Assembly: GCA_964494795.1 (NCBI GenBank)
Contig: CAZBSV010000074.1
Span: 1,053 to 65,052, forward strand
Direction: 5' to 3'
Length of the DNA stretch: 64,000 bases
From: an uncultured Spirochaetales bacterium
GTDB lineage: Bacteria > Myxococcota_A > UBA9160 > SMWR01
Below, in pieces: positions 7,387 to 64,000 of the stretch (its first letter is position 1; the number at the start of each line of letters is the position of its first letter). Below the pieces are notes generated by a model. That model saw nothing but the letters and a program-made list of their open reading frames with translations. It was not told the origin of the DNA and ran no database searches. A program made the position numbers and the translations under genes.

Positions 7387-10300
7387 TCAGACGAAAGAAA
7401 TCTTCTTCTTGCGCCGCTTGGGGGTTTTCTCAGCCGATTCGTCGGCTTCGACGAGATCGCCAGCGTCCTCTTCGCCAACGGGCCCGGAAGAAGCGCCTTT
7501 CTCTGCCGCCCCGGATCTCGACTCCGCGCTGTCTGCAGCCTCGACCTCCGCGACGACATCGTCGAAGCTCTCCCAAATCGGAGGCGCCTCGGTGGCAGCG
7601 CCGGCTTGCGTCGCGGCCTTGGACTCGATCGCCGCGAGCTGGGTCTCGATCGGCGCGGACTGGGTCGCGATCGGCGCGGAATCGTCGAGATCCCCGAGGA
7701 ACTCGTCGAACGATTCGTATTCGTCGGTGTCAACGCTCGCGCCTTCGCGCGGATCGGATTCCTCGGACTTCTGGAGCTCTGCGAGCCGCGACGCAACGTC
7801 CGCGAAATTCGGATCCAATGCTTGAACTTCTTCATACGCCATGCGTGCCGACGCGATATCCCCGGTCGCTTCGTACGACTTTCCGAGATCCAACTTGAGC
7901 GCAAAAATCATCTCGTTGGAAAGCCCACTCGATGCGAGCGCTTCCTTGAGATGGCCAATCGCTTGCTCCGGCTCACCCGTGTCTTGCGCGCACATTCCCA
8001 GCAGATGGAGACAGCCGATGCGGCGCTCCGGGTCGCCCATCGCGAGCCGAAATTCTCCAATCGCATCGCTGAACAGACCCATCTCCCGATACGCGATTCC
8101 GAGATCGTAGTGGGCTTGATAATCTCCCTCAGACAGCGCCGCACTGACTCCCTTCTTGAACTCGGCAAAGACCGAAGCGAAGCCATCTTCCGAAGTGTTC
8201 CCGCGGCCCGCGGCTCGATCGATTCTCGACGAAGAAGCGCCCGCATCCCGATCGAGCGACTGGCTCAGTTCAGCGGCCAGATCGAACCCGAACGGGTCGC
8301 CGTCCGGTTCGGGTGCGTGGCCCTGTACGGGTGCGTGGCCCTGTTCGGGTGCGTGGTCGTGTTCGGCTGCGTGGTCGTCGGAAGCCTCGGCGAGAGCCGC
8401 AACGGAATCCGCGCGCCCTGCATCCGCTACCGACTCGCCCGGGGTCTCCGACACTTTGGGAACACTCGCGAGCGAACCCGTCTCATCCTGTTCGTCCGAC
8501 TGGGATTGGTCTTCCGCTGCATCGTCGCCGAGATTCGAGTCGAGATCGAGTTCGCCGGAATCCTCGAATCCGAGATCGGCCGCAAAATCTTTTGCGGCTT
8601 CGTCGCGCGCTCCCGCTGCAACGCTTTCTGCTTTCGCATCTCCGGCTTCAACGGCCTCGGCGCCTTTCAGCAGCGCGGTCTCGCGGGCGATCGCAGCGGT
8701 GGCGCCCAGATTGCCCTGCCAGTTCGCGAGATCCTCGCCGATATCCGATCCCGCCAACGCCGCCGATTCGCCATTCTCGGGCTCGGAATTTGCTGCCGTC
8801 GTCGCCGGAGCGCCGACCCCCGGTCCAGCATGATGCCCGCGCTGGGCGGAAATTTCCCCGAGCCGGACCATCGCGTGCGGGTGATTCGGCAGCAGCGCGA
8901 CGATCCGCGAATAGACGGCCTCAGCTTCATCGAGCAGACCCTGCTCCAGGTAGAAGTCCGCTTCTTCGAGATCCTCCGCGACCTTCTCCGGGCTTGCATT
9001 GCTTTCGCTCGGGCCGGAAAACGTCATCGCGTCGCTGTCGACTTCGGCGTCGTCGACGGCGTCCTCGTCGCCTGCAGCGCCGTGGCGGACCGAAATGTCG
9101 GTGATACTGATCTCGTCCAGCTCGGCGTCGCCGGCCGAACCCAGGCCGCCCGCTGCCGCGGCGAGACTCGATTGGCCTGTCGACGCGTCGCTTGCGGAGG
9201 GCTGCGCGAAGCTCGCGTCGTCGATGTCGATCTCGATGTCGATTCCGTGGACCGAAATCTCCGCGAGATCGAGTTCGGGTAGTTCCGAATCATCGAATCG
9301 TGCGGTTTCCGGATCCAGCGTCACACCGGCCGGATCATCGGGTATGGACAATTCATCCGAGGATTCCCCGCTGAGATCGTCTGCGATCCCCTGCCTACCG
9401 GGAGCCGATCCGGTCGCGCGGGGAGTCGGTCCGGCCGCGCGTGGAGCCGATTCGGTCGCGCGGGGAGTCGATCCGGCCACGCGGGGAGCCGATCCGGTCG
9501 CGCGGGGAGCCGGTCCGGCCGCGCGGGGAGTCGGTCCGGCCACGCGGGGAGCCGATCCGGCCGCGCGCGCAACCGACAGCTCGAGTTTCCCGGCGGCCGT
9601 CGGATCGAGCGCCGCGACTCGGCTGCGGAGCAACTCTGCCGAACCGACCTCTCCCGATTCGGCAGCCAATCTCGCCGCTCGAGACCACATCTCGACGGCC
9701 TTCGCGACGTCATCTCCCTCCGCGTAGGCCTCGCCGAGTTTTTCCAATGCCAGGCGGTGATCGAGATCGCGCGCGAGAATGCTCTCGAGGTTCGCGATGG
9801 CCTGATTGCGCTTCCCGTAGCGAAGATAGACGCTCGCTTCGGCCAGCAGCTGACCGACATCGATCTCGTCATCCCGTGGTCCTGAATCGCCCGCGGGCTT
9901 CTTAGCCAGCGAACCATTGGGCGAGAGGCGCGTCATTTCATTCGAGTCGGAGATCGGACTCAACGGACCCGAGCGAATATCGTCCAGATCTCCGTCGCGG
10001 CTCAGAATGCCGAACCCAGAATCGTCATCCGAAACCAGCAGGGTCGTATCGGACAGCAGGTCTCCATCGAGAAGCGTCGTCTCATCGCCAATCAACAGAT
10101 CGTCCAGCAGCTCATCGTCGCCGAGTTTTTCGTCGTCACTGATGTAACCGTTGGGTGTATCCTTCGAGCCGATCTCGTCGAGAGGCACGTAGCGCTGCAA
10201 GATCTCGCGAGTGCGTTCTTCATCGCCACGTTCGCGATAGAGCTCCGCCAACTCGCGATACAGAGCCACGAGATCCTCGTCGCGCTTCTCGAGCCGGTAG

Positions 10301-11028
10301 ACGTCGGCCAACAGCTCGAAGTGTTCAGGCGATCTGTCTTGTCCGAGCGCGCGCTTCGCGAGCGCCTCGGCGCGCTCGGTGGCACCTTGCTCGATCAGAT
10401 TCCGCGCATACCGGGCAATCGTCTCGACGCGACCGGGTTCGACCTCCAGAATCCGCTCGAACACCTTCCCCGCAGCTTCCGAGTCGCCCTGAAGCTCGAG
10501 CTCGCTGATGACGGCGTCGTATTCAGAGACGGCCTGTTCCTTCAGACCTTCCTGATGGAGCAGGTCGGCGACCTTGATTCGACTGGTTGTATTCGATGGA
10601 TCGATGGCGGCCATCTTCCGAAGCAGGCCGAGCGCTTCCTGCTTCTGGCCCGCCTTCCGATAGCCTTCCGCTGCTGCTTCGAGACAGCCGATCGCCTCGG
10701 CGGTCAGGCCCATGCGCTGATAGAGTTCCGCGAGCGGCTCGTAGGATGTGAATGTATCGGGTTGCAGATTTTGAATCTGCTTGAAGACCGCGACAGCACG
10801 AGCATCGAAGCCCTCGTGCATGAACTGATCGGCTACGACCGAATACGCACCGATCGCTTCACCGATCTGCCCCCAACGCCGGTAGGTGTCACCGAGCTCC
10901 AGACGCAACTTGGAGTCGCGCGGATCAAGCTTGAGCAGCTTGCCGAATTCATTGAGCGCCTTGTCCTTGGCGCCCTTTTGGGCGTGCTTGCGCGCCGCCT
11001 CCAGAATTTTTCGCTTGTCCGCCGCCAA
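7387..11028 (-). CDS. large multi-block TPR protein with acidic low-complexity linkers; SgmX-like by architecture and position
   Basis: 1213 aa. There are TPR blocks at the N-terminus, the middle and the C-terminus, separated by D/E-rich disordered regions. It sits downstream of pilQ on the same strand. The SgmX comparison is an inference from recalled Myxococcus xanthus locus organisation. Confidence 0.7.
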   Translation of the reverse strand: MAADKRKILEAARKHAQKGAKDKALNEFGKLLKLDPRDSKLRLELGDTYRRWGQIGEAIGAYSVVADQFMHEGFDARAVAVFKQIQNLQPDTFTSYEPLAELYQRMGLTAEAIGCLEAAAEGYRKAGQKQEALGLLRKMAAIDPSNTTSRIKVADLLHQEGLKEQAVSEYDAVISELELQGDSEAAGKVFERILEVEPGRVETIARYARNLIEQGATERAEALAKRALGQDRSPEHFELLADVYRLEKRDEDLVALYRELAELYRERGDEERTREILQRYVPLDEIGSKDTPNGYISDDEKLGDDELLDDLLIGDETTLLDGDLLSDTTLLVSDDDSGFGILSRDGDLDDIRSGPLSPISDSNEMTRLSPNGSLAKKPAGDSGPRDDEIDVGQLLAEASVYLRYGKRNQAIANLESILARDLDHRLALEKLGEAYAEGDDVAKAVEMWSRAARLAAESGEVGSAELLRSRVAALDPTAAGKLELSVARAAGSAPRVAGPTPRAAGPAPRATGSAPRVAGSTPRATESAPRAAGPTPRATGSAPGRQGIADDLSGESSDELSIPDDPAGVTLDPETARFDDSELPELDLAEISVHGIDIEIDIDDASFAQPSASDASTGQSSLAAAAGGLGSAGDAELDEISITDISVRHGAAGDEDAVDDAEVDSDAMTFSGPSESNASPEKVAEDLEEADFYLEQGLLDEAEAVYSRIVALLPNHPHAMVRLGEISAQRGHHAGPGVGAPATTAANSEPENGESAALAGSDIGEDLANWQGNLGATAAIARETALLKGAEAVEAGDAKAESVAAGARDEAAKDFAADLGFEDSGELDLDSNLGDDAAEDQSQSDEQDETGSLASVPKVSETPGESVADAGRADSVAALAEASDDHAAEHDHAPEQGHAPVQGHAPEPDGDPFGFDLAAELSQSLDRDAGASSSRIDRAAGRGNTSEDGFASVFAEFKKGVSAALSEGDYQAHYDLGIAYREMGLFSDAIGEFRLAMGDPERRIGCLHLLGMCAQDTGEPEQAIGHLKEALASSGLSNEMIFALKLDLGKSYEATGDIASARMAYEEVQALDPNFADVASRLAELQKSEESDPREGASVDTDEYESFDEFLGDLDDSAPIATQSAPIETQLAAIESKAATQAGAATEAPPIWESFDDVVAEVEAADSAESRSGAAEKGASSGPVGEEDAGDLVEADESAEKTPKRRKKKISFV
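9410..9570 (-). repeat. 21-nt tandem repeat, about 8 copies, in-frame in the TPR gene (heptapeptide PRxxGxx)
   Basis: Units ccggtcgcgcggggagtcggt / ccggccgcgcgtggagccgat ... encode PRVAGPT PRAAGPA PRATGSA PRVAGST PRATESA PRAAGPT PRATGSA. Confidence 0.9.
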
Positions 11029-14555: not shown

Positions 14556-17500
14556 TCAGGCATCGTCCCCATCCGGCACGACCACGCGCGGGGTCACGAA
14601 AACCAGCAACTCCTTGCGGCTCTCGCCGGTTTCGTCGCTTCGGAACAGTGCGCCGAGCAGCGGGATCTTGTGGAGATAGGGGACGCGCGATTGCCGCTCC
14701 GACTTGTCGATCACGTAGATTCCACCCAGGACGAGGGTTTGCCCGTCCTTGATGAGGGTCATCGTCTTGACCTGGTTCTTCGCGATGGCCGGCGAACCGG
14801 TCAGCGTGAAGACGCTGTCGTCGGGGGCGTTGCGCGTCACCGCGATCTTCATGATGATGCTCTTGTTCGCCGTGATGTGCGGTGTCACGTCGAGTTTCAG
14901 CACTGCGTCGACGAATTCGAGCTGTGCATCGCCGTTCTCGAACGTCTGGAACGGAATCGAGACGCCTTGCTCGATCGTCGCCTTGCTGTTGTCGAGCGTT
15001 ACGACTCGCGGACTCGAAATCACCTTGCCGTCGCCATTGACTTCCGCCGCCTGCAACTGCAGATCCACGTTGAATGTATCGTCGAGGATCCAGCCAGCGA
15101 GATTCAAGAATCCGTTCGGGTTCGCGGTGATCGGGTTGGCGATCAGGGCATCATTCCCCGCGGTGGGTGTGTAGAGCCAGTTGTCAGGCAACTTGTCCGG
15201 ATCTGCTCCCAGCGCCCACACGGTGCCGAATTCCCGAGAGAAATCGAGGCTTGCTTCCACGATCTTCGCCTCGATCATGACCTGCGGCGTTTGCGTATCG
15301 ATCGCCTTGATCAGCGCCGTTGCCTCAGCGATCACCGAAGGAATGTCCTTGATGATCAGCGTGCTGGTGCGCTCGTCCGTCGTGACGGTTCCGCGCTCCG
15401 GTGTCAGCAGTTGCTTGACCATGGCGGAAACCTGTTTCACGTCGGCAAAATTGACGGGCTGAAGCTTGACGATCAGGTCTTCGAGCCTTTCCTTCGAGCG
15501 GCGCTCCTGCAGGCGCATTTCCTCTTCCTGCTGGATTTCGACGCTCGGCGCGATCCGCAGAATGTTCCCGACGCGCATGAATCCGAGCCCCTTGGTGAGC
15601 AGGACGACATCGAGAGCCTGATCCCAGGGAACCTCGACCAGGCGTACCGTCACCTTGCCCTTCACGTCGTCGCCTGCGATCACGTTGAGTTCCGACACTT
15701 CAGCGATCAGACGCAAGACGTCCGCGATGTCCACGTCCTTGAAATCAAGTGAGATCCGTCGGCCGATGTATTGCTTTTCGGCCGACAAACCGCCCGGCGT
15801 CAACAAGTCGATCGCGGATTCGGGCTCGATCGAGGCGGGCATCGATTCCGAACTGGAATCGGAAGCCGGCTGCTGCGAAACATCGGAGTCAGCACTGTCC
15901 GGCGTCGAGGCAGGCACGCCCTCCAGCTGAGCCTGGGCGAGCATCGCCTGATCCTGGCTCATCGCAGGCGGCGCAACGGCCACCGCTCCGGTGCGTGGGA
16001 AATCAATCACCAGCAGTGAACCGCGGCGCGTAATCTCCGGTTGCAGATCCGCAGCGCGCTGCACGACCAACCGAACTTCGGGTTCTTCCATTTCGGGCTG
16101 ATCGAATGCGGTGACCAGCGAGATCGGACCACCGGGCTCAGGCGTAATGCGCACGGCGGCCTCAGGGTCCACCTTCGCTCCTCGGAGCGAGATGATCACC
16201 GTCTCGGACGTCGGCTCGAACACCGCGTAGTCGACCGGCGAGTCAGCCAAGACCACGATGCGATCTCGAGTGTCCTGATTGTCGAACTCGATCCCGTAGA
16301 TCGAAACGATCGCGCTGCCAGTCTCGGCGATAGCGGACTCGATTTGCTGCGTCTCCGGAGCCTCCATGGAATCGACAGGCGCGTCGATCGGATCCGCCCA
16401 GGCAGCTACTTCAGCCGGCGTCAAATCTGCTTCGACGACCGGTGTCACTGCAGCGACTTCGCCTGCCGCGATCTCGTCGGCCTCGGCACCCAGCTCATCG
16501 GGCGAGCTGCTCTGCGTCTCCGCATTGCCAATTTCTGCGATCTCGACGGGAGTTGCCATTGGAGCAGCCCCTCCCGTGGCTGCAACCAGAGCGGAGTCGA
16601 TCTCCGGCCCGCGGCCGAGGGCAATCACCAATCCAGCGGCGGTCGGCACGACCCTGCGACCATCGAAGGGCTGCGCGGTACTGCCGCCATCGACCACGAC
16701 GCGGATCTTGTCGACGTGTTCGCCCACGCGGACCCTCGACACCAGCTCCGAATCCAGTTCAATGGTCGAAAGATCCGCTGCATTCTCCAGTTCGAGAAGG
16801 TCTACCACCAGCCGCGACGGATCTTCGAGGGTGAAGGTCATCACGCTCGAGATCAATCCGTTCGCGCGAAGCTTCACGAGGACGCCCTCGCCGGCCTTCT
16901 CGACGTCCACGCCCGTGAAGCGGGTCGCGGGTGTCGGGTCTGCAGCCGCCTCCATCACATCTGCAGCCGCCTCCACCACATCTGCAGGCGCCTCCATCAC
17001 ATCTGCAGCCGCCTCCACCACGTCTGCAGGCGCCTCCATCACATCTGCAGGCGCCTCCGTCAAATCTGGGGACTGCTCAGCCGCGCTAGATGCCCAGGGA
17101 TCGAAGGCATCTGCCTGCGCGTGTTCCAGCGTCTCGGCACCCGAGTCGAGCGCCGCAGCGGCGAGATCGCCAGAAATTCGAATCTGCAATCCACCAGCAA
17201 CGAATTGCACCTCGTGCTCCGCGGGCGCGTCGAGGAAGACTTCTACGCGGGTCATTGCGTCGCTGGTTCCCGTCGAATAGGGCGCCACCAAGACCTTCGC
17301 GACGAGCCCGTCGCCTACGATCACGGGCTCGATCGCTCGATCGGCGCGCGCCGCCAGATCCACGATGATGCGATCCGGGTTCGGTTGCCCGAATGCCGTG
17401 AAGATCGGGTGATCCGGTCCGACCAGCGTAACGATGGTGTCACTTCCATCACGCTCGACCTGGATCTCCGAAATGTCCTGGTCCTGCGACGACTGAGCCG

Positions 17501-17603
17501 TCGTAGATCCGGTGCCAGCGCAGCCAACGGTTCCGCCGGCCAGCAAGGCCGCGAGCGCCGTCACCGCCGCAATGTGGAACCGACCGCTTCTAAATCCCAG
17601 CAT
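14556..17603 (-). CDS. pilQ: type IV pilus secretin PilQ with N-terminal AMIN-type domains
   Basis: The C-terminal secretin domain (...ATIEQGVSIPFQT...TLVLGGIY...RVPYLHKIPLLGALFR...ELLVFVTPRVV) is preceded by an STN/N0-like region and repeated AMIN-like modules. ATG 17603 with a GAGGGGGGG RBS inside the pilP end. Confidence 0.9.
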   Translation of the reverse strand: MLGFRSGRFHIAAVTALAALLAGGTVGCAGTGSTTAQSSQDQDISEIQVERDGSDTIVTLVGPDHPIFTAFGQPNPDRIIVDLAARADRAIEPVIVGDGLVAKVLVAPYSTGTSDAMTRVEVFLDAPAEHEVQFVAGGLQIRISGDLAAAALDSGAETLEHAQADAFDPWASSAAEQSPDLTEAPADVMEAPADVVEAAADVMEAPADVVEAAADVMEAAADPTPATRFTGVDVEKAGEGVLVKLRANGLISSVMTFTLEDPSRLVVDLLELENAADLSTIELDSELVSRVRVGEHVDKIRVVVDGGSTAQPFDGRRVVPTAAGLVIALGRGPEIDSALVAATGGAAPMATPVEIAEIGNAETQSSSPDELGAEADEIAAGEVAAVTPVVEADLTPAEVAAWADPIDAPVDSMEAPETQQIESAIAETGSAIVSIYGIEFDNQDTRDRIVVLADSPVDYAVFEPTSETVIISLRGAKVDPEAAVRITPEPGGPISLVTAFDQPEMEEPEVRLVVQRAADLQPEITRRGSLLVIDFPRTGAVAVAPPAMSQDQAMLAQAQLEGVPASTPDSADSDVSQQPASDSSSESMPASIEPESAIDLLTPGGLSAEKQYIGRRISLDFKDVDIADVLRLIAEVSELNVIAGDDVKGKVTVRLVEVPWDQALDVVLLTKGLGFMRVGNILRIAPSVEIQQEEEMRLQERRSKERLEDLIVKLQPVNFADVKQVSAMVKQLLTPERGTVTTDERTSTLIIKDIPSVIAEATALIKAIDTQTPQVMIEAKIVEASLDFSREFGTVWALGADPDKLPDNWLYTPTAGNDALIANPITANPNGFLNLAGWILDDTFNVDLQLQAAEVNGDGKVISSPRVVTLDNSKATIEQGVSIPFQTFENGDAQLEFVDAVLKLDVTPHITANKSIIMKIAVTRNAPDDSVFTLTGSPAIAKNQVKTMTLIKDGQTLVLGGIYVIDKSERQSRVPYLHKIPLLGALFRSDETGESRKELLVFVTPRVVVPDGDDA
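16939..17068 (-). repeat. 21-nt tandem repeat, about 6 copies, in-frame in pilQ (heptapeptide ADVxEAx)
   Basis: tctgcagccgcctccatcaca / tctgcagccgcctccaccaca / tctgcaggcgcctccatcaca ... encode APADVMEAPADVVEAAADVMEAPADVVEAAADVMEAAAD. Confidence 0.9.
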
Positions 17604-17608: not shown

Positions 17609-18199
17609 TCACCCCCCCTCACTACGACGGATCCGCATTTCGATATCTTTTTTCGTCACGTTGCCCAGATAATCCACATAGGTCTCGTTGATGACGACCA
17701 AGTTGTCATCAATCGTTGTTACCATCCCTTCGTTCTTTCCGATTCGCGTGCCCTTCGCGACGATGTAACTATGACCAGCCGGGTCCTCTACCAACGCCCT
17801 CGCGGATCCCGTATTCCAGACCACCGCAACGATCGATAGTTGGCTGACGTCGAATTGCTCCAGCGGTCCGCCAGCCACTTCTTGGCTCGAGATTTCCTTC
17901 CTCTCCCACTCGAACGACCGGAACGGATCCCGCAGGCCCTCCTTGTCGTAGAGCATTCCGGGCCCGGTTCCGGCGAAGCTGCCATCGATCGCCGGTGCGA
18001 CGGGAACCGCGGCGACTTGACTCGGCTGCACGGCGGGCGCCGCCGCGGCTTCACCCTTCTTCGCCTTCCGCTCGGCTACGCGCGCGTTTAGCTTGGCGCG
18101 CTCCTGTTGAAACTCGGCCTGGGTCGGCTGGTTGGCCTCTTCTTTGCAACCGACCAGCGCCAACAATCCGATCGAGATCGCGATGGCTGCAATTTTCAC
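17609..18199 (-). CDS. pilP: type IV pilus assembly lipoprotein PilP
   Basis: GTG 18199 with GGAGGGG RBS. Lipobox LLALVGC. C-terminal PilP domain (LRDPF...LEQFDVSQLSIVAVVWNTGSARALVEDPAGHSYIVAKGTRIGKNEG). Confidence 0.75.
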   Translation of the reverse strand: MKIAAIAISIGLLALVGCKEEANQPTQAEFQQERAKLNARVAERKAKKGEAAAAPAVQPSQVAAVPVAPAIDGSFAGTGPGMLYDKEGLRDPFRSFEWERKEISSQEVAGGPLEQFDVSQLSIVAVVWNTGSARALVEDPAGHSYIVAKGTRIGKNEGMVTTIDDNLVVINETYVDYLGNVTKKDIEMRIRRSEGG

Positions 18200-18242
18200 G
18201 CTACCCCTCCGCCCCGACCGACGTCCGCGAAGTACGCCCCGT

Positions 18243-18842
18243 CTACGCACCGGTTTCGGCTCCGACAAATCGGAACGTTGTCGCGGTTCCAGTCACCTTG
18301 AGTCGCGTGGAATCGAGCGATTCCATCGAGACCGCCAGCTTCAACGACCCCATGTTCACGATTCGCTTCAGCTGCGACAGAAGCTCAAAGAACTTTCCAA
18401 TGTCGTGATACTCGCCATCGAGCTCGATGGCGATCGGAACCTCGGCATAGAAATCGTGCAATATTTCCTGCTGCCGCTGAAAGGAGCGAATCTCGACGCC
18501 AGCTGTCTTGCCGAGATTGCTGATGTCGGTCAGCAGCACTTCGAGCTGCTGCTCGTTCGGGAGCTGGCGAAGCGCCTTCTTCAACTGCAGCTCGAGAGCT
18601 GCGATCTCAGCCTCGAATGCCTCGATGTTTCCCGCGACGAGTCGCACCTCGCTCAGCTTTCGCTGGAGACTCAACTCCTCCGCCTGAAGCCGCTCGAGTT
18701 CCTGAGCCTTCGCCTCGTAGATCCCAAAGTAATAGGCGACACAGCAGAGGATCCCGATGCCGGTGAGGATTCCGATTCGCACCCCCTTCGGAAGCTTCAG
18801 GATCTTGTCGAGCTTTTCTCGCGTATCCGCGCTGATTTCCAT
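18243..18842 (-). CDS. pilO: type IV pilus assembly protein PilO
   Basis: One TM segment, a coiled coil, then the PilO core (LPNEQQLEVLLTDISNLGKTAGVEIRSFQ...YAEVPIAIELDGEYHDIGKFF). GGAAGGAG RBS. Confidence 0.8.
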   Translation of the reverse strand: MEISADTREKLDKILKLPKGVRIGILTGIGILCCVAYYFGIYEAKAQELERLQAEELSLQRKLSEVRLVAGNIEAFEAEIAALELQLKKALRQLPNEQQLEVLLTDISNLGKTAGVEIRSFQRQQEILHDFYAEVPIAIELDGEYHDIGKFFELLSQLKRIVNMGSLKLAVSMESLDSTRLKVTGTATTFRFVGAETGA

Positions 18843-19429: not shown

Positions 19430-20508
19430 TATGAGTCCACCCTCCGCAACGCGAGCCCAACACCCACCCCGAGAGACGGCGCGAGGTCCTCTAGATAGGA
19501 TGAGTCGAACCTTGAACTCGGCGCCATGCGCGCAAGCGGATTCAGCAACTCGACCGGGAGGCCGGTTCTTTCGTGAAATGCGTTCTCGAATCCTGCGACG
19601 CAGGAGCTGCCGCCCGACAGGTAGACCCGCTCGATCCGACTGTCAGCGGTCGTCGCGGCGTAAAAGTCGAGCGAGCGACTGATTTCGCCAATCACGGTAT
19701 CGGAGACCGTCCGCATCGCCTGCTCGACCTCTTGAGGCACGACTTCCTGGCTGACTTCCGAGCGCCTTCCACCGAGCTTGAGCCGTTCGGCTTCTTCGAA
19801 GCTCACTGTCAGGGCCTTTTGGATTTCCTCGGTGTACTGATTTCCCGCCGTTGTGATGTCGCGCGTGAAGGCCGGAGCGCCGTTCGACACGATGTTGATG
19901 TTGACCACCTGTGCGCCAATGTTTACGAGCGCTACCGTCTGGTTTTCGCTGGTGTCGTAGTTGGCTTCGAACGCGTTCTCGACCGCAAACGCGGCGACGT
20001 CGATGGCAGCCGGAATCAGGCCTGCCTCCGTGATCACCTGAACGTAGTCGTCGATCAGATCCTTCTTGGCAGCAACCAGCAGCACGTCCATTTGCCCTTC
20101 CGTGCCACCAGAGTCCAGGATCTGGAAGTCGAGATTTACCTCATTCACGTCGAACGGGATGTATTGCTCGGCCTCCCAGCGAATCTGTTCTTCGAGTTCC
20201 GCCCGCGACATGGTCGGTAGACTTACTTTCTTCACGATCACCGAGTGCCCGCAGACGGCAGCTGCGGCGTATTTCGTCTTGATCTTCCCATTCTCGATCG
20301 CTTCACGAATCGCATTTGCGATCGCGCTCGAGTTCAGAAAGGCTCCCTGCACGATCGCCTCGTTGGGCAGCTTTGCCACACCAATGTGGGTTAGCTCGAA
20401 CTCGCGATCCCGCCCTTTGATCATGATCTCGACCGCTTTCACGCTCGAAGATCCGATGTCCAGGCCAATCATTGATTTTCCGCCGAAGTTTCCGAACCTA
20501 AACTTCAC
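19429..20508 (-). CDS. pilM: type IV pilus assembly ATPase-fold protein PilM
   Basis: Actin/FtsA-like fold motifs (IGLDIGSSSVKAVE, LVNIGAQVVNINIV, VYLSGGSS). GTG start overlapping the upstream HTH gene stop (GTGA). Confidence 0.9.
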   Translation of the reverse strand: MKFRFGNFGGKSMIGLDIGSSSVKAVEIMIKGRDREFELTHIGVAKLPNEAIVQGAFLNSSAIANAIREAIENGKIKTKYAAAAVCGHSVIVKKVSLPTMSRAELEEQIRWEAEQYIPFDVNEVNLDFQILDSGGTEGQMDVLLVAAKKDLIDDYVQVITEAGLIPAAIDVAAFAVENAFEANYDTSENQTVALVNIGAQVVNINIVSNGAPAFTRDITTAGNQYTEEIQKALTVSFEEAERLKLGGRRSEVSQEVVPQEVEQAMRTVSDTVIGEISRSLDFYAATTADSRIERVYLSGGSSCVAGFENAFHERTGLPVELLNPLARMAPSSRFDSSYLEDLAPSLGVGVGLALRRVDS

Positions 20509-54255: not shown

Positions 54256-54700
54256 CCTTTCCCGTGACGCCCATCAGCTGACGCAGGGTCGCCTTCAGCT
54301 TTGCGTCGTCCCAGGGTTTCGTGACGAGCGCGCGGATGCCGATCTCCGCGAGGCGCTCGGGCGGAATCTCCTGGGTCCAACCCGTGATCAGCATCCGAAT
54401 CGCATCGGGACTCGACTCCGCCGCTCGCTCGAGCAACTGGACACCGCTCATGCCGGGCATCTTGTGATCGGAGAGGATCGCGTCGACGCTGCGCTCGGCG
54501 AGAACCCGCAACGCAGCTGCCGCACTTTCGACAGCGACGATCTCGTAGCCCTCGCGGCGAAGTGACCGCTTCAGCGCGGAGAGGATCTGGGCTTCGTCGT
54601 CGACGAGCAGGAGTGTGGGCCGAGTCGATCCTGTTTTGACTTTCGATCCGGCCTTGCCCTTCAATCCGCGCCCCTTTCTCGGTCCGCACCCGGAAGCCAT
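54191..54700 (-). CDS. single-domain CheY-like response regulator
   Basis: LLLVDDE, ILSDHKMPGMSG, LITG, VTKPW. 65-nt convergent overlap with the preceding plus-strand gene. The start overlaps the kinase gene end. Confidence 0.8.
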   Translation of the reverse strand: MASGCGPRKGRGLKGKAGSKVKTGSTRPTLLLVDDEAQILSALKRSLRREGYEIVAVESAAAALRVLAERSVDAILSDHKMPGMSGVQLLERAAESSPDAIRMLITGWTQEIPPERLAEIGIRALVTKPWDDAKLKATLRQLMGVTGKASRREADSGTPDRSSDYSLRR

Positions 54701-56286
54701 ACCGTGAACCGGGTTCCCACACCGGGTTCGCTGTCGGCCACGAGACTGCCGCCGTGGCGTTCGACGATGTTGAAACTCGTCGACAACCCCAGGCCGGTAC
54801 CGACCCCGACTTTCTTCGTGGTGAAGAACGGATCGAAGATCCGGCCCATGTGTTCGGGAGCGATTCCCACCCCCGTATCCCTCACGATGATCGCGACGCC
54901 GCCCGCCCGGGGCTCCGTCTTCAGCCAGATCGTTCCCGTCTTTCCGCTGTCTCCAATCCGCTCTTCGACGGCCTGATAAGCGTTGACGAGCAGGTTCATG
55001 AACACCTGCTGCAGCTGCATCGGGTAACAGTAGACGGCGGGAAGGTTGCGATACTCCTTCTCGAGCTGCACCAGGTGTTTCATCATCGGCCAGACGATGC
55101 CCGCCGTCGAATCGAGGAACTGGTTGACGTCCGCCAATACGCGGTGCTCGCTGTCGCGGTGCGAGAAATCGCGCAGGTCGTGAACGATGTGGCGAATCCG
55201 CTCGGATCCCTCTTGCGACTCGCGAATTGCCTTGGCGAAATCGGAGAGCACGAACGCGACATCGAGTTCCTTGGCAGCCGCAGTCAGCGCACTCGAACTG
55301 CGTTGGATCTCGGCGAGATCCGCACCCGCCACGGCTGCCTGCAGCGCATCGACTTCGCGCCAGGCGCGCTGCAGGTCACCCAGGTACTCGGCCATCTGGA
55401 ACAGATTTGCGTGAATGAATCCCATCGGATTGTTGATCTCGTGGGCGACGCCGGCAGCGAGCTGCCCGATCGAGGCCATCTTCTCCGTCTGCAGGACTTT
55501 GCGCTGCAATAGCTTTATTTCGGTGAGATCCGAGAATACGGCGACGGCGCCGAGCTTGGCGCCCGCGCTATCGAAGACCGGCGCGCTGGAGATTCCGATC
55601 GGCACGCTCGTCCCGTCGGCTCGCGTGAGGGTCATCTCCATCCCCTTGAAGCGCTCCCCGGTTTCGAGCGTGCGCGCGACGTGATTCTGATCGCGCGGAA
55701 CCCCGCGGAAGCAGCTCTCGATCAGCTGCCCGCGCAATTGCTCCGCGTTCGCACCGAGGATCTCCTCGGCCGGAGGGTTCGAGAAGGCGATCCGGCCCTC
55801 GAGATCGACCACCAACAGCGCGCTATTCAAGTTTTGGATGATGTTCTGGTTGTAGCTCTCGAGGTCGCGGATCCGACGCTCCGCGACTCCCTGGTCGCGA
55901 GCCGCTCGCCAGCGCTGAATCTGCTCCAACGCAACCACGGGCAGCACGTCCGAAAATTCCTCGCCCGCAACCACGCAATCCGCCGCGCCTCGCCGGAAGG
56001 CTTCGAGCGCGGCTTCCTCACTCGGGCTGCAGTGGACCACGATCACCGGCGGGCCATCGACCTTGAATGCTTCGAGCAAATCCCAGCATTCGGAACCGAG
56101 CGCCGACTCCACGACGATCAGGTCGACCGGCGCATCCCGGCATCGGCCGCGGCAGGCAGCCGCATCGCGCACGGTCTCGATCGCTGCGCCCGGACCCAAC
56201 CGGCGCAGGGCCATGCCGGGGTCCGGCCCGGCGGACTGCGCGGAGCGCGCAACGATGATCCGAACTCCGGCGCGCGCTCGCTCCAC
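54661..56286 (-). CDS. histidine kinase with N-terminal pseudo-receiver, PAS, HisKA and HATPase_c domains
   Basis: The REC-like N-terminus has E at the acceptor position (DLIVVESAL). PAS-like region (LNSALLVVDLEGRIAFSN), H-box AAGVAHEINNPM, N/G boxes (LLVNAYQA; DTGVGI; GTGLGLS). Confidence 0.85.
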   Translation of the reverse strand: MERARAGVRIIVARSAQSAGPDPGMALRRLGPGAAIETVRDAAACRGRCRDAPVDLIVVESALGSECWDLLEAFKVDGPPVIVVHCSPSEEAALEAFRRGAADCVVAGEEFSDVLPVVALEQIQRWRAARDQGVAERRIRDLESYNQNIIQNLNSALLVVDLEGRIAFSNPPAEEILGANAEQLRGQLIESCFRGVPRDQNHVARTLETGERFKGMEMTLTRADGTSVPIGISSAPVFDSAGAKLGAVAVFSDLTEIKLLQRKVLQTEKMASIGQLAAGVAHEINNPMGFIHANLFQMAEYLGDLQRAWREVDALQAAVAGADLAEIQRSSSALTAAAKELDVAFVLSDFAKAIRESQEGSERIRHIVHDLRDFSHRDSEHRVLADVNQFLDSTAGIVWPMMKHLVQLEKEYRNLPAVYCYPMQLQQVFMNLLVNAYQAVEERIGDSGKTGTIWLKTEPRAGGVAIIVRDTGVGIAPEHMGRIFDPFFTTKKVGVGTGLGLSTSFNIVERHGGSLVADSEPGVGTRFTVWLPGADRERGAD

Positions 56287-56420: not shown

Positions 56421-56500
56421 TTGGCTGGACTCGGTTCACCCTGGTCAGCCTCGGATCGCCCTGGTCAGCCTCGGATCGCCCTGGTCAGCCTCGGATCACC
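56421..56500. repeat. 20-nt tandem repeat, 3 exact-phase copies plus 1 degenerate
   Basis: ctggtcagcctcggatcgcc at 56441, 56461 and 56481, preceded by a degenerate copy. It lies in the 209-nt spacer between the activator gene stop (which it overlaps) and the kinase gene start. Confidence 0.85.
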
Positions 56501-57920
56501 GTGGCTGGGTGCGAATCTTCGAGGCGATGTCGTGCTTGGCGAGTTTGCGGTAGAAGGTGCTGCGCCCAATTCCAAGCATATTCGCAGCCGCGCTGGCGTC
56601 CCCCGCGCATTCCGCCAGCGCGCGCTCGAGCGCGCATCTCTCGTAGGCGTCCAGGGAAATCGGTAGGCTCGTCGGAGCGAGCGCCGAAACGGCTCGCGTC
56701 GCGGGTCGATTGATCGCGAGATCCGAGACGCGCAGACGCGGCCCGCGCGCGAGCGCCATCGCCGACTCGATGATGTTCTCGAGCTCGCGAACGTTGCCCG
56801 GCCAATCGGATGCCATCAGAAGTTCGAGCGCTCTCTCTTCGATGCCCTCGACGCGCGAATTCTCATCTGCGTGCTTGCGGAGAAAATGCTGCACGAGCAG
56901 CGGAATGTCCTCGCGCCGCTCCCGAAGCGGAGGGATCACGATCCGAACCACGTTGAGTCGATAGAAGAGATCCGTTCGAAACCGACCTTCCTCCACCATC
57001 GTCGCCAGATCGCGATGGGTCGCCGAAATCACGCGAATGTCGACGGGGACCGCACTCGCCGCGCCCACGGGCCGAACCTCTTTCTGCTGCAGGGCTCGCA
57101 GCAACTTCGCCTGGACGGCGGGCGGGATCTCGCCGATCTCGTCGAGAAAAAGGGTCCCGCGGTTCGCGATCCGGAACAGGCCTGGCGCACCAACCGCACC
57201 GGTGAATGCACCCTTTTCATGCCCGAACAACTCGCTCTCGATGATGCTCTCCGGCAGCGCCCCGCAGTCGACGGGAACGAAGTCGCCTCCCGATCGCGGG
57301 CTCGCGGCGTGAATCCCGCAGGCCACCAACTCTTTGCCGGTTCCACTCTCCCCCTGCAGCAGAACATGACTCTCGTTGTGCCGGAGGCTGTGAATCTTGC
57401 TCGCAAGAGTACGCATCGCCGGCGAATTGCCGACGAGCGCCGGGATCGAGGCGCGCGCGCGCAGCTCCGTTTCGAGTTCCCGGTTGCGGCGGACCAACCT
57501 GCGCCGCTCGATCGCCTTGCGCACGGTCGTCTGGATCCGATGCACGTCATCGAACGGCTTTTCGAGATAGTCGAAGGCGCCTTTTCGGATGCAACCGACC
57601 GCGCTCTCGATACTGCCGTGACCGGTCATGACGATCACTTCGATTTCGGGGCGCGCGCTCTTGATCTGCTCGAGCAGTGCGAGCCCGCTGACCGGTCCGA
57701 GCAAAAGGTCCACCAGGGCGACGTCGAGGCGCGGATCGGAGAGATGCGGCGTCGCCTCGCTCACGGACTGCGCGAGCGCGGTTTCGTAGCCCGCGCGCTC
57801 GAGAACGCGCTTGAGCGACTGGAGCAACAGCGGCTCGTCGTCGACCAACAGAACGAAGCCCGAGGCTTCGGGCGCCGAGAAGCGGCGTGCGTCGGGCGAT
57901 TCCGCGCTCGCAGGTGTCAT
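56496..57920 (-). CDS. sigma-54-dependent NtrC-family response regulator
   Basis: REC (VALVDLLLG), [21 protein letters not shown], Fis HTH (AANMLGIGRSTFYRKL). ATG 57920 is preferred over TTG 58001. Confidence 0.85.
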   Translation of the reverse strand: MTPASAESPDARRFSAPEASGFVLLVDDEPLLLQSLKRVLERAGYETALAQSVSEATPHLSDPRLDVALVDLLLGPVSGLALLEQIKSARPEIEVIVMTGHGSIESAVGCIRKGAFDYLEKPFDDVHRIQTTVRKAIERRRLVRRNRELETELRARASIPALVGNSPAMRTLASKIHSLRHNESHVLLQGESGTGKELVACGIHAASPRSGGDFVPVDCGALPESIIESELFGHEKGAFTGAVGAPGLFRIANRGTLFLDEIGEIPPAVQAKLLRALQQKEVRPVGAASAVPVDIRVISATHRDLATMVEEGRFRTDLFYRLNVVRIVIPPLRERREDIPLLVQHFLRKHADENSRVEGIEERALELLMASDWPGNVRELENIIESAMALARGPRLRVSDLAINRPATRAVSALAPTSLPISLDAYERCALERALAECAGDASAAANMLGIGRSTFYRKLAKHDIASKIRTQPR

Positions 57921-57955
57921 GGAAGTCGTATCGGTCCCGAATTCGGGACGCTTGA

Positions 57956-59536
57956 ATGCCGAGGTCGGGGTCTCTAAGATACCCGGCGCCCCCTCCGCCA
58001 AGCGGAGTCAACCCACTGCGCAGCTCCAACATTCTCGTCGTCGATGACGAGGAACTCTATCGGCGAGCCCTCGAGCGCATTCTCGTCCGCGCCGGGCACC
58101 AGGTTGCCACCGCGCGAGACGCGATGGCGGCGCTCAGCCTCGTCTCGAGTCAGCCGACCGACCTCGTCCTGGCCGATATCCGGATGCCGGGCATCAACGG
58201 CCTCGAATTGGTGCGACAGATCCACGAGATTGCGCCGGATCTGCCCTGCATCGTCATCACCGGGCATGGCAGCCCCGAAAGCTCGGTGGAGGCGCTGAAG
58301 GCCGGAGCCTACTGGTACCTCGAAAAGCCCTTCGACCAGGGGCATCTCGATGTCGTTCGCAGGCTCGTCGAGCAGGCCATCGAGCACGGCCGACTCAAGT
58401 CTGAGAATCGAATGCTCCAGGGTCAGCTGCGTTCGCGGTATCGATTCGAGAACATCATCGGCACCAGCGCCGCGCTGCGCGGCGTGCTCGAAACCGTTTC
58501 GAAAGTGGCCGCTTCGGACAGCACCGTCCTCATCACGGGTGAGAGCGGAACCGGCAAGGAACTCGTCGCGCGCGCGATCCACTTCAACAACAAGCGGGCG
58601 GACAAGATGTTCGTAACCGTCAATTGCGGGGCGATCCCGGAAGAACTTCTCGAGTCCGAACTGTTCGGCCACGTTCGCGGCGCCTTCACGAACGCGGTCG
58701 CCAACCGCGAAGGCCGATTCTCCGTCGCCCACGAGGGAACGATCTTCCTCGACGAAATCGGCGACATGAGCCCCACCTTGCAGGTGAAGTTGTTGCGCGT
58801 ACTGCAGGATCGGACGTTCGAGCCCGTCGGTTCATCGAAGACCCAAAGCGTCGACGTGCGCGTGATCGCCGCCACCAACCAGAATCTCGACGAAGCGATC
58901 GCGCAGCGCCGCTTCCGCGAGGATCTCTACTATCGACTCAACGTGATTCCGATCGTGGTTCCTCCGCTGCGAGATCGCCGCGACGACATCCCGCTGCTCG
59001 CGCAGCACTTCTTGAACCTCGCCAACGAGGGCCGAGGCGAGCGGGCCGTGGAATTCTCCGACGAAGTCATCGCGCGATTGGCAGAATTCGACTGGCCCGG
59101 AAACGTGCGTGAACTCGAAAACCTCGTGGAGCGCATGGTCACGCTCTGCTCGGGCCGTGAAATCGTCGCGAGTGACCTTCCGAAGTCGCTGCAGAAGAGC
59201 GCTCCGCCGCGCCCGTCGGCGCCGCAGATCCCACCCCAAGGCTTGAGCTTTCGGGACGTCGTGGACCAGTTCGAATCGGACCTGATTCGCCAGGCACTCG
59301 AAATCACCCACGGCAACAAGAACCGCGCCGCGCAGCTGATCCAGATGAATCGCACCACGATGCTCGAGAAGATGAAGAAGAAAGGCGTCAAGTTCGATGC
59401 GGGGTCGAGCGATTCAACACGAGTGGACGGAACGCTTCGCGCCGAGGCTGCCGATCCGCGCGAAGTCGACGGGTTCGCAAACACGACCGCTGGCAGCGAA
59501 GCCGGCGACTCGCCAAACCCGCGGCGCACGCACTGA
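57956..59536 (+). CDS. sigma-54-dependent NtrC-family response regulator with variant GAFTNA loop
   Basis: REC (LVLADIRMPGING), [21 protein letters not shown], Fis HTH (GNKNRAAQLIQMNRTTMLEKMKK). Divergent from the previous activator with only a 35-nt spacer. Confidence 0.85.
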   Translation: MPRSGSLRYPAPPPPSGVNPLRSSNILVVDDEELYRRALERILVRAGHQVATARDAMAALSLVSSQPTDLVLADIRMPGINGLELVRQIHEIAPDLPCIVITGHGSPESSVEALKAGAYWYLEKPFDQGHLDVVRRLVEQAIEHGRLKSENRMLQGQLRSRYRFENIIGTSAALRGVLETVSKVAASDSTVLITGESGTGKELVARAIHFNNKRADKMFVTVNCGAIPEELLESELFGHVRGAFTNAVANREGRFSVAHEGTIFLDEIGDMSPTLQVKLLRVLQDRTFEPVGSSKTQSVDVRVIAATNQNLDEAIAQRRFREDLYYRLNVIPIVVPPLRDRRDDIPLLAQHFLNLANEGRGERAVEFSDEVIARLAEFDWPGNVRELENLVERMVTLCSGREIVASDLPKSLQKSAPPRPSAPQIPPQGLSFRDVVDQFESDLIRQALEITHGNKNRAAQLIQMNRTTMLEKMKKKGVKFDAGSSDSTRVDGTLRAEAADPREVDGFANTTAGSEAGDSPNPRRTH

Positions 59537-61698: not shown

Positions 61699-63210
61699 AT
61701 GCCGAAGACGATTTTATTGGCCGACGACAGCGTCACGATCCAGAAAGTCGTAGGCATAAGCTTTGCCAGCGAGGATGCGATCGTCGTGACCGTCGACAAC
61801 GGTGACGATGCGATCACCAAGACTCGCGAAATCCGTCCCGACATCGTCCTCGCAGACGTCGTGATGCCCGGCAAAAACGGCTACGAGGTCTGCCAAGCGA
61901 TCACAAACGACCCGGATCTCGCGCACATTCCGGTGCTGCTGTTGACCGGAACCTTCGAGGCCTTCGACGAAGCACGCGCGCGCGAGGTGGGTTCGGCGGG
62001 CCACATCGCAAAACCCTTCGAAGCGTCAGCCCTGGTCGCCGAGGTTCGGCGTTTGACGGACTCGGCGTCCGCCAAAGCGTCCGCCAAAGCGTCCGCCAAG
62101 GCGCCCGCCAAGGCGCCCGCTTCGCCGCAAACCGCGCCCACAAGGCCGGCCGCCCAGCAAGCTGTCGCGGTCGATGCATTCGACTTTTTCGACGACGAAA
62201 TCGGAGGGGCCGAGATTCCGCCCGCCGAACTCGCCGACGAAATGCTGGGCGACTTCAAATTCCAGGGCAGCGAGAGCGCAATCGCATTCGACGCTGACGT
62301 CCGCGGCGAATCTGCGGACTCGCGCGAGCGATTCGTGCCCATCACGCCCGATGTGGCCCGTGCGGTCGAGGCCGTCGAAGTCCGCCGCGTGTCCTCCTAT
62401 GCCGACGCCGCCGAGACCAGCGCTCCGTTCGCGACGTCGCGCGCAAGCGCGGCGGCGCCGGTATTCGACGACAGCCTCGACGATTCACTGTCTCCCGATG
62501 CGAGCCGCAGTGGCGATCGACCGTTCGACTTCGCACTCGCCGGCGAAATCGCGGATGCGACGGATCCGCTCGCCGAATTCGACCTGATGCCGCCCGTGGA
62601 CGCAGACGACCTCGCGCATGCCACAGTGATCGACCCACTCGGCGCTTCCGGCTACGACGTGTCGTCCTCGGACCTCGGACCGCCAATGCGCGACACCGCA
62701 CCGGATCTCGTGAGCGTCGCGCGCGCCCGCCAGCACGAGGCCGAGTTGACCGTGTTGGCAGCCGACGTCCCGCTCGAAGCGGAACCGATCTTCGACGACG
62801 ACTCATTCGGATTCGGGTCACCCGCGAACGACCTCACCCGCGTCGTGCGCGAAGATCCCGTGTACGCGAACTTTGCGACCCCGCGGCCGCCCGACGTCGC
62901 GGTCGAAGAGGACGAGCCCGAGAGCTGGCCTTCCCGGCGCCGCAGCGTGACCGCGCAAACTCCGCGCGCCGACCGCAAGGCAGACTCCGCGGCTGCGCTG
63001 ATCGCGAAGATCGGACCCGAATTGCGTCAGCAACTCCACGACACGCTCGAGAAGATCGCCTGGGAGTCGTTCGGCGACCTCACCGAAGCGATCGTCCGGC
63101 AGTCGGTGGAGCGCGTCGAATCGATCGCCTGGGAGGTCATCCCGCGGATGGCCGAAACCCTGATCGAGGAAGAAATCCGCAGAATGAAGAACGAGCCCGA
63201 AGACGCGTGA
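61699..63210 (+). CDS. response regulator with receiver domain, about 330 aa of acidic/Ala-Pro-rich linker and a conserved-looking C-terminal helical domain (RomR-like architecture)
   Basis: REC (ILLADDS, IVLADVVMPGKNG, LLTG, IAKPF). Low-complexity middle. C-terminus LHDTLEKIAWESFGDLTEAIVRQSVERVESIAWEVIPRMAETLIEEEIRRMK. ATG 61699 after a G-run RBS. Confidence 0.75.
   Translation: MPKTILLADDSVTIQKVVGISFASEDAIVVTVDNGDDAITKTREIRPDIVLADVVMPGKNGYEVCQAITNDPDLAHIPVLLLTGTFEAFDEARAREVGSAGHIAKPFEASALVAEVRRLTDSASAKASAKASAKAPAKAPASPQTAPTRPAAQQAVAVDAFDFFDDEIGGAEIPPAELADEMLGDFKFQGSESAIAFDADVRGESADSRERFVPITPDVARAVEAVEVRRVSSYADAAETSAPFATSRASAAAPVFDDSLDDSLSPDASRSGDRPFDFALAGEIADATDPLAEFDLMPPVDADDLAHATVIDPLGASGYDVSSSDLGPPMRDTAPDLVSVARARQHEAELTVLAADVPLEAEPIFDDDSFGFGSPANDLTRVVREDPVYANFATPRPPDVAVEEDEPESWPSRRRSVTAQTPRADRKADSAAALIAKIGPELRQQLHDTLEKIAWESFGDLTEAIVRQSVERVESIAWEVIPRMAETLIEEEIRRMKNEPEDA
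62065..62120 (+). repeat. 12-nt tandem repeat, about 4.5 copies, in-frame (SAKA/PAKA)
   Basis: gcgtccgccaaa x3 then gcgcccgccaag x1-2. They encode SAKASAKASAKAPAKAPA just after the receiver domain. Confidence 0.85.
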
Positions 63211-63382: not shown

Positions 63383-64000
63383 ATGGGTGGTCCGGCGGCC
63401 CTTCCTCCGCATTTCACGCCCCTACCTCCGCGGGTCACGCCGCTTCCTCCGCGGGTCACGCCGCTTCCTCCGGGCTGGACCTGGCTTCCGCTCGTCGAGT
63501 TAGCGCTCAGCGAAGACATCGGCGCTGGTGACGCGACGACACCGCTGATCGTCGAAGCCGGCCGCGAGGGCTCCGCGGTCATCGAGGCGCGCCAACCCCT
63601 CGTCGTCTGCGGTCTCGAAATCGCGTTTGAGGTGTTTCGCAAGCTCGATCCCGCGATCGAGCTCCGAGCCCGCTTCCGCGACGCAGAGCGGGCCGAATCC
63701 GGAGACATCCTCGCGACCGTCCAGGGCGACCTGCGCGGAATTCTCGCCGCCGAGCGAACCGCGCTGAATTTCCTGATGCGAATGTGCGGTGTCGCGACTT
63801 TTACGCGCCGCTTTGTCGACGCCGTTTCTGGAACAGGCGCGCGCATCGTCGACACCCGCAAGACCCTGCCGGGCTGGCGCAGCCTCGACAAATACGCGAC
63901 ACACATCGGCGGCGCGACGAATCACCGCGTAGGGCTCTACGACGGCATTCTGCTCAAAGACAATCACGTCGCGATCGCGGGCGGCGTCGGCCTCGCAGTC
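63383..64000 (+). CDS. nadC: nicotinate-nucleotide pyrophosphorylase (quinolinate phosphoribosyltransferase), 5' partial at window end
   Basis: This frame is not in the supplied ORF track and is open to position 64000. ATG 63383 with GAGGGAG RBS. ALSEDIGAGDATT, ERTALNFLMRMCGVAT, DTRKTLPGWR, GGATNHRVGLYDGILLKDNH. Confidence 0.8.
   Translation, partial: MGGPAALPPHFTPLPPRVTPLPPRVTPLPPGWTWLPLVELALSEDIGAGDATTPLIVEAGREGSAVIEARQPLVVCGLEIAFEVFRKLDPAIELRARFRDAERAESGDILATVQGDLRGILAAERTALNFLMRMCGVATFTRRFVDAVSGTGARIVDTRKTLPGWRSLDKYATHIGGATNHRVGLYDGILLKDNHVAIAGGVGLAV
63401..63490 (+). repeat. 21-nt tandem repeat, about 4 copies, in-frame at the nadC 5' end (heptapeptide LPPxxTx)
   Basis: cttcctccgcatttcacgccc / ctacctccgcgggtcacgccg / cttcctccgcgggtcacgccg / cttcctccgggctggacctgg. 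They encode LPPHFTP LPPRVTP LPPRVTP LPPGWTW. Confidence 0.85.

Follow-up and report, generated by a model that had tools for sequence, protein, structure and literature searches.

A high density of locally derived tandem arrays in a 64-kb stretch of an uncultured Myxococcota genome

The 64,000-nt stretch of contig CAZBSV010000074.1 analyzed here (hereafter the window; G+C content 63.5%) belongs to an uncultured bacterium whose nearest genomes are metagenome-assembled genomes of uncultured Myxococcota ("Deltaproteobacteria"); they share gene order with the window, and the top match of its CoaBC protein among GTDB representatives is 68%. Short tandem arrays are scattered along the window, in protein-coding genes as well as in spacers, and these arrays are the subject of this study. 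When the whole window was searched with Tandem Repeats Finder (TRF) and the units were read in register, 11 arrays were found (Table 1). Ten of them pass the threshold that we used for counting, with the same TRF settings, in all samples (period of at least 9, at least 2.8 copies and a TRF score of at least 80), and the remaining one, the 11-nt array, scores 64. An earlier reading of the same DNA (the original prediction) had listed nine arrays, all of which were recovered by TRF and by direct reading with coordinates shifted by a few bases; two further arrays, 21 nt at 7612-7709 and 18 nt at 8307-8374, were absent from that list and both lie in the gene of a TPR protein. In direct reading the copies are contiguous and stand head to tail without spacers.

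Seven of the 11 arrays lie in frame inside genes, and the other four (11, 20, 21 and 27 nt) are non-coding. As had been proposed, the coding periods are divisible by 3, which holds for all seven (12, 18, 24 and, in four arrays, 21 nt), and all seven open reading frames (ORFs) are intact. The placement of arrays inside housekeeping genes was likewise confirmed by Pfam and by translation for CoaBC, NadC and PilQ. Shuffling the window (30 dinucleotide shuffles and 30 local codon shuffles) yielded no array of period at least 9 at a score of at least 80, the maximum being 77; thus chance is excluded. The units share no sequence, again as claimed: when all rotations and both strands were tried, no pair of units exceeded an identity of 0.65, which corresponds to the 95th percentile of shuffled units. 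GATC was considered as a motif common to the units because five of the 11 contain it, but the background explains this, since the window holds 12.3 GATC per kb, 3.7 times the expectation, and about 0.26 are expected per 21-nt unit. A bias in tetranucleotide palindromes was seen across the whole window, with TCGA at 4.1 times the expectation beside GATC, and with CTAG and GTAC at 0.12 and 0.36 of it. The arrays themselves were also considered as hairpin-forming DNA and rejected as such, their fold z-scores of −2.3 to +3.3 showing that they are not structure-prone.

Table 1 Tandem arrays and hairpins of the window
Feature	Position	Strand	Location and product	TRF score and remarks
11 nt x2.9, unit ACCGGCGCTGG	2600-2631		intergenic	64; 100% matches
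21 nt x3.3, degenerate	7612-7709	−	TPR gene, aa 1107-1139, SAPIATQ/SAPIETQ	89
18 nt x3.8	8307-8374	−	TPR gene, aa 885-908, HAPEQG/HAPVQG	108
21 nt x8.0	9400-9567	−	TPR gene, aa 488-543, inter-domain linker	245
21 nt x6.2	16939-17068	−	pilQ (14556-17603, minus), aa 182-225	204
24 nt x4.8	38146-38261	−	coaBC (37137-38441, minus)	204
Terminator-like hairpin, perfect 12-bp stem	40405-40436	+	after small HTH gene	
21 nt x4.1, unit CCCTCGTTTCTGGGACCGATC	40431-40516	+	intergenic	158; 98% matches
27 nt x4.9	46798-46930	−	intergenic	224
Hairpin element, ~118 nt, one copy	46887-47003	−		perfect 22-bp stem 46922-46979, loop GACATGGNGTTNGA, tail GCAACCAACC
20 nt x3.8	56430-56504	−		122; frame analysis
12 nt x4.7	62065-62120	+	response-regulator gene (61699-63210, plus)	84
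21 nt x3.5	63399-63472	+	nadC 5' end	106

We compared the arrays with the corresponding positions of orthologous loci (given below as L with a number). Wherever such a comparison was possible, the array proved to be confined to this genome, and the relatives carry one unit or nothing at the same place, indicating that the arrays are local amplifications and not members of a mobile family. The claim that no single mobile repeat family is involved therefore stands, as the units are unrelated and each is derived from its own locus. For the CoaBC, PilQ, response-regulator and 27-nt arrays the unit is single-copy in the orthologues, and such a locally derived unit is what characterizes a minisatellite. 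The coding arrays all occupy either a gap of the domain profile or linkers and termini that no Pfam domain covers.

In CoaBC the array consists of five copies of (L/R)FDPSQND, which add 32 residues to a loop just before the conserved GEIDHI motif and sit in a gap of the Pfam Flavoprotein profile. Among the best 120 homologues a 402-aa form dominates, and all 63 homologues that were aligned carry DLFDPSQE once, none of them with the insertion. In the orthologues the hexamer TCGA(T/C)C occurs twice, in the FD.. and ID.. codons, exactly 24 nt apart, a textbook template for slipped-strand mispairing; because this spacing equals the array unit, it is the local sequence, and not a ruler, that sets the period there. 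Compared with the solved CoaBC of M. smegmatis (6TGV), the insertion replaces a four-residue loop before the GEIDHI / E-V-Q-H motif. An AlphaFold2 model of the window CoaBC is predicted with a mean pLDDT of 85.9 and a pTM of 0.82, and only residues 68-101, which correspond to the insertion, fall below a pLDDT of 50. The histidine of GEIDHI is presumably the catalytic histidine of the decarboxylase domain.

In PilQ the array forms ADV(M/V)EA(P/A) heptads in an acidic linker before the AMIN domain (Pfam Secretin/AMIN). The unit is present once (..D-VVEVAAEPTPAT) in 20 orthologues versus six heptads, or about 35 extra residues, in the window, and a higher-order pattern of 42 nt (14 aa) runs through the array, implying that it grew in several steps. 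Two PilQ homologues (P0123 and P0136) have independent and unrelated insertions in the same linker (aa ~180-225 of the window PilQ), so that, judging from these alignments, the length of this linker appears to have changed repeatedly.

Three arrays share the TPR gene (7387-11028, minus strand), whose 1213-aa product matches Pfam TPR families; all three fall in linkers and are missing in the orthologues of L085 and L139 (GCA_019313245.1). The longest one encodes (A/T)PR(A/V)(A/T)G(S/P) heptads. At the degenerate 21-nt array the L139 orthologue shows a 16-aa gap at the same place, and at the 18-nt array it has no repeat and a linker that is unalignable. One edge of the 18-nt array falls within an imperfect inverted repeat of 17 nt (8283-8317).

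The 12-nt array translates into (ASAK)n/(APAK)n, within the linker that follows the receiver domain (Pfam) of a response regulator; 29 orthologues have ..AASA.. once, and the window protein is longer by 12 residues. In nadC, which starts with an ATG at 63383 and continues past the window end (Pfam QRPTase_N/C), (T)PLPPRV heptads add about 21 residues after the conserved start and ahead of the QRPTase_N domain. The orthologue in L087 begins MGFPPALPPERTWIPLVEL, with the same ATG and with conserved upstream sequence, and NadC is 294 aa long there and in L140 and L141. A CCGC microhomology is found at 21-nt spacing in NadC.

Among the non-coding arrays, the 21-nt array lies between the terminator of the small HTH gene and the DUF5658/SLT genes. 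In the syntenic relatives about 85 nt are missing at this point and the flanks are conserved. Its unit is composed of the end of the terminator stem and a T tract, and the unit junctions scan as mini terminators. The 27-nt array had been reported at 46797-46930; the array itself is real but its context had to be corrected, since it occupies the spacer between two convergent genes, those of an NTP-transferase (45863-46783, plus) and of AnmK (47263-48411, minus). A 370-aa minus-strand ORF that runs over this array was considered as a repeat protein and rejected, having no Pfam match and the composition of a shadow ORF. The first unit of the 20-nt array takes in the end of a sigma-54 response-regulator gene (56496-58001, minus), namely its final three codons and stop, and the remainder of the array is non-coding, in the spacer before a histidine kinase gene (54661-56286, minus). 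It has no counterpart in L087, where the region is unalignable. The 11-nt array is flanked by a gene with a Big_2 domain (77-2419) and a methyltransferase gene (2883-3884) (Pfam). A promoter scan gave no promoter-like sites near the intergenic arrays.

Only two perfect hairpins with a stem of at least 12 bp exist in the 64 kb (40405-40436 and 46922-46979), and each overlaps the edge of an array; in both cases the adjoining array unit includes the outer 6-9 nt of a hairpin arm. At the hairpin after the HTH gene (DNA fold −18.1 kcal/mol, z = −6.0), which is kept in relatives L081-L083, the 3' arm ends with CCCTCG, the first 6 nt of the 21-nt intergenic unit. The hairpin at 46922-46979 (−36.3 kcal/mol, z = −10.2) is the stem of a larger hairpin element, and the 27-nt unit consists of the base of its 3' arm and its 3' tail. 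This unit is present once in relatives L081-L083, and about 45 further copies of the element have a single tail. Small duplications of the 3' tail were also seen in L100 and L101, and in the consensus of the element CCCG recurs about 27 nt apart, as judged by eye and not computed.

The hairpin element, unlike the arrays, is dispersed. Its invariant 28-nt core ATCGGGCGACATGGNGTTNGAGCCCGAT has 51 exact matches in metagenome contigs (L088-L138), with up to three copies on one 364-kb contig. In 46 aligned copies the ~30-bp stem is 97.7% paired, compared with 88.5% in shuffled sequences and at most 47% when the partners are slid, and compensatory changes fill 85 cells where 21 are expected. The stem holds about 20 G-U pairs versus 6 A-C mismatches on the strand shown, by our own count from the pair table. 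A covariance model built on the element finds one strong copy in the window (113.7 bits) and one weak copy, which is inverted and degenerate (47035-47149, plus, 18 bits) and shares the same anmK / NTP-transferase spacer; the corresponding second copy scores 46 bits in two relatives (L082 1263-1375 and L083 1254-1366, minus). The model found none in the more distant Myxococcota or the other phyla examined. No Rfam 15 family matches the element, an E-value scan of 46700-47300 giving miRNA-precursor noise far below the gathering score, and in the whole window only tRNA-Gly reaches that score. We considered a small protein starting at an ATG in the loop and rejected it because the ORFs, 11 to >95 aa long, lack a consistent stop. 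According to a crude ORF-based analysis, most copies are found in spacers of convergent genes or at the 3' ends of genes. As a multi-copy intergenic palindrome with a conserved core, the element resembles REP, ERIC and MITE elements, and no transposase was seen within the 64-kb window. From sequence comparison, we regard it as a candidate for something new in this Myxococcota clade, either a structured RNA or an element of the REP kind. Our search of the literature on REP elements or tandem repeats of Myxococcota found nothing relevant.

Some side observations concern the same regions. A perfect hairpin with a 10-bp stem, CTCGAACCCG-N3-CGGGTTCGAG, occurs twice (25596-25618 and 47209-47231, the latter following the anmK stop), and a related imperfect form (CGAACCCG..CGGGTTCG) makes up the 8283-8317 inverted repeat at the edge of the 18-nt array; this hairpin may be a second small repeated motif of a terminator-like kind. 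AnmK as called in L081 (291-1760) is 489 aa long and runs to a TGA in the loop of the hairpin element, compared with 382 aa elsewhere. In the window, the Peptidase_S13 ORF (41722-43623) has 633 aa versus 482-492 in relatives, and the Gate ORF (43052-44725) has 557 versus 433. These length mismatches are probably effects of start-codon choice or of ORF listing.

Next we consider how unusual the density of arrays is. The window has 10 arrays per 64 kb at the counting threshold. In 1.35 Mb around CoaBC from 80 other genomes we counted 12 arrays (0.57 per 64 kb), in 377 kb of loci that come from the clade or carry the hairpin element 8 arrays (1.4 per 64 kb), and in 173 kb of strictly syntenic relatives 7 arrays (2.6 per 64 kb). 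In density the window thus exceeds the syntenic relatives about 4-fold and unrelated loci about 17-fold. Given the rate in the syntenic relatives, the Poisson probability of at least 10 arrays is 3.6e-4, showing that the excess is real in this sample. The original prediction of an array-rich genome is supported to this extent, on one 64-kb contig.

The relatives also contain arrays of their own, and none of them shares its position with an array of the window, even where the gene is the same, which implies that turnover is fast. L139 has three 18-nt arrays within 20.6 kb (9315-9375, 17907-17977 and 20010-20060, in PilQ, the TPR protein and the next gene) and a further 18-nt duplication at 18181-18217; L070 has five arrays, some weaker and some stronger, in 10.7 kb; and L082, L083 and L087 each have their own. 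A stretch of 21.2 kb aligns between L082 and L083 with 99.2% identity; its 28 gap positions all fall within two arrays (18571-18628 and 9289-9378), where they make up an additional unit of 19 nt and an indel of 9 nt. Because the indels are confined to arrays, this pair gives direct evidence that arrays of the clade behave as variable-number tandem repeats (VNTRs). Contigs of relatives end inside arrays in L085 (18796-18934, 42 nt x3.3), L106 (2922-3038, 56 nt x2.1) and L116 (7-310, at the contig start, 12 nt x25), which shows that short-read assemblies of this clade break there and that array counts taken from such contigs are too low. We found no conspecific sequence: the CoaBC and PilQ of the window are identical to NCBI proteins that are singletons, the GTDB representatives do not include the species, and the exact 27-nt unit had no match in JGI metagenomes. 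Among the window ORFs scanned against Pfam there were no mismatch-repair or replication genes.

Taken together, we read the arrays as minisatellites that arose independently and in situ and are specific to this genome, and we assign this reading a probability of about 0.8. We infer the following course. A native stretch of 11-27 nt would be duplicated, likely by slipped-strand mispairing between short direct repeats during replication; in two cases a very stable hairpin adjoins and may have taken part. The duplicate would then be amplified onward by slippage or unequal recombination, sometimes by two units per step. Arrays would survive only where they do little harm, that is, in intergenic spacers and 3' regions or, with units that are multiples of 3, in disordered linkers and surface loops. 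Neither a mobile family nor a dedicated system is involved, and the arrays probably have no function of their own. The genome, and the clade to a lesser degree, creates or retains arrays at an unusually high rate. Several points weigh against this reading. The window samples 64 kb of this genome, and "genome-wide" is an extrapolation; the comparators are mostly short-read contigs that may break or collapse at arrays, which inflates the apparent enrichment. Copy-number variation was seen for the arrays of relatives, and no conspecific was found in which those of the window could be compared. Chance alone readily produces microhomologies of 4 nt, and the orthologues at hand for PilQ, which are rather distant, yielded none. 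Hairpins adjoin two of the 11 arrays plus one weak case, and the arrays themselves do not tend to fold. Neutrality is an assumption, and a 32-aa insertion three residues from the GEIDHI of CoaBC might affect its activity.

Other explanations have to be weighed against the birth of minisatellites in place. The arrays could be functional and selected, as tunable linkers in PilQ, the TPR protein and the regulator, as arrays of regulatory sites or terminators, or as contingency loci. That the arrays are in frame in intact genes, that the linkers of PilQ and the TPR protein acquired insertions independently in several lineages, that arrays differ between near-identical relatives and that the 21-nt intergenic units, standing after a terminator, each scan as a small hairpin with a T run would all fit this possibility. 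However, none of the arrays recurs in a relative, not even where the proteins are 75-83% identical, and the hosts include the cytoplasmic housekeeping enzymes CoaBC and NadC, for which length variation is of no obvious use. In addition, in-frame units of 11-27 nt are unlike the frame-shifting tracts of phase variation, and the intergenic arrays are not accompanied by promoter-like sites. We therefore consider selection for function unlikely. It is also conceivable that the assembler produced the arrays, either by mis-resolving cycles of the de Bruijn graph or by linearizing strain variants as tandem copies. Copy number is indeed hard to assemble once an array exceeds the k-mer or read length, the contig of L085 ends in an array, and assemblers are known to collapse near-identical units (PMC12418385). 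Such an error, however, would alter the copy number and not make an array; the units within arrays differ irregularly at several positions, the arrays start and stop at native sequence with conserved flanks, the periods vary from 11 to 27 nt instead of following one k-mer length, and independent assemblies of relatives hold similar arrays, all of which makes an artefact very improbable.

The crowding of many arrays into a short stretch, and the attachment of the 27-nt array to a truly dispersed hairpin element, might suggest one dispersed repeat system, such as a mobile family of the REP/MIRU kind or a CRISPR-like array. But the units are no more alike than shuffled ones, they follow each other head to tail with nothing between them, each matches local orthologous sequence, and the GATC that some of them share occurs at background frequency; we give this explanation next to no weight. 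A CRISPR array was rejected because there are no spacers and no Cas family among the ~30 window ORFs scanned against Pfam.

The original prediction had called the reuse of exactly 21 nt striking, and for this part of it we found no support beyond what chance could give. Period 21 occurs in five of the 11 arrays, and the other six arrays have six different periods. Two of the five lie in the same TPR gene, one of them degenerate and weak. The coding constraint and the clustering of arrays of the clade at 18-27 nt leave four multiples of 3 available, and our own rough arithmetic gives a post-hoc P of ~0.05-0.2. The five arrays, one of them intergenic, might nevertheless reflect a molecular ruler in replication or repair that favors duplications of 21 nt, about two helical turns, in coding and non-coding DNA alike. 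The recurrence of 21 and 42 nt in relatives of the clade (L009, L070, L090 and L085) is in line with it, and L139, with a single mode of its own at 18 nt (three to four arrays), could hint at genome-specific modes. Against it stand the few in-frame periods available, the pair of arrays in one gene, the scatter of the other periods and the CoaBC period, which equals the spacing of a pre-existing microhomology. A ruler is thus quite unlikely, and a preference for 21 nt is not established.

The kind of feature is well known: these are slippage-derived minisatellites or VNTRs, the mechanism is ordinary, and no new system is implied. What is noteworthy is the density, the insertion site in CoaBC and the association with hairpins, and not a new category. 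VNTRs and minisatellites produced by slipped-strand mispairing serve in multiple-locus VNTR analysis (MLVA) typing of bacteria such as Mycobacterium, Burkholderia and Yersinia. Like them, the window arrays are head to tail, with locally derived units of ~10-30 nt that are intergenic or, as multiples of 3, in frame, and copy number varies between near-identical relatives in the clade (L082/L083). They differ in their density, which is unusually high for one 64-kb stretch, and in that the variation was seen in the arrays of relatives and not in these. Unlike VNTRs that lie mainly in surface proteins, they are found in housekeeping enzymes, including a site beside the GEIDHI of CoaBC. Slipped-strand mispairing as the generator of VNTRs goes back to Levinson and Gutman 1987, as cited in PMC12418385. 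The contingency loci of Neisseria, Haemophilus and Campylobacter are likewise tandem repeats that change copy number by slippage, but their units are 1-8 nt and switch genes on or off by frameshift or promoter spacing, whereas the window arrays have units of 11-27 nt and keep the frame, so that no such switching is possible. MIRU, REP/BIME, ERIC and the STRR heptamers of cyanobacteria are also short and often intergenic, and the hairpin element is, like REP and ERIC, a multi-copy intergenic palindrome; the array units, in contrast, are unrelated and come each from its own locus, and only the hairpin element is dispersed. Clustered intergenic arrays based on heptamers (7, 14 and 21 nt; AGGGAAC-like and ACTGACC-like) were seen in two Acidobacteriota loci (L042 and L046), and these form a dispersed family, unlike the window arrays.

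Slippage stimulated by hairpins has also been studied in plasmid systems of E. coli. In vitro, templates with a hairpin and direct repeats make replicative polymerases slip, as described for Pyrococcus PolB and PolD (PMC4134008), and at the 21-nt and 27-nt intergenic arrays a stable hairpin likewise stands beside direct repeats, the repeated unit including the base of a hairpin arm. Those experiments mostly score deletions, whereas the outcome in the window is repeated expansion and most of the arrays have no hairpin.

A broader hypothesis would join these observations, and we offer it only tentatively. It supposes a lineage with a heritably raised rate of tandem duplication primed by microhomology or hairpins (a change in the replisome, in mismatch repair or in a helicase could be the cause), in which arrays would arise and vanish so quickly as to be the dominant class of indels, reaching even a loop by the catalytic site of an essential enzyme, and in which preferences in unit length (21 nt here, 18 nt in L139) would reflect the machinery. 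Separately, the hairpin element could be a new family of structured RNAs or REP-like elements whose 3' tail seeds arrays.

If the density holds genome-wide, this uncultured sediment clade of Myxococcota would be a natural system for the study of minisatellite birth. Single-copy ancestral states are visible in the relatives, and the microhomology that sets the unit in CoaBC, the hairpins at array edges and the growth of the PilQ array in several steps are examples. Judging from the AlphaFold2 model, the loop of an essential enzyme apparently tolerates an insertion of 32 residues just before the GEIDHI of CoaBC. Such arrays also break or distort genomes assembled from short metagenomic reads and inflate the apparent diversity of protein lengths.

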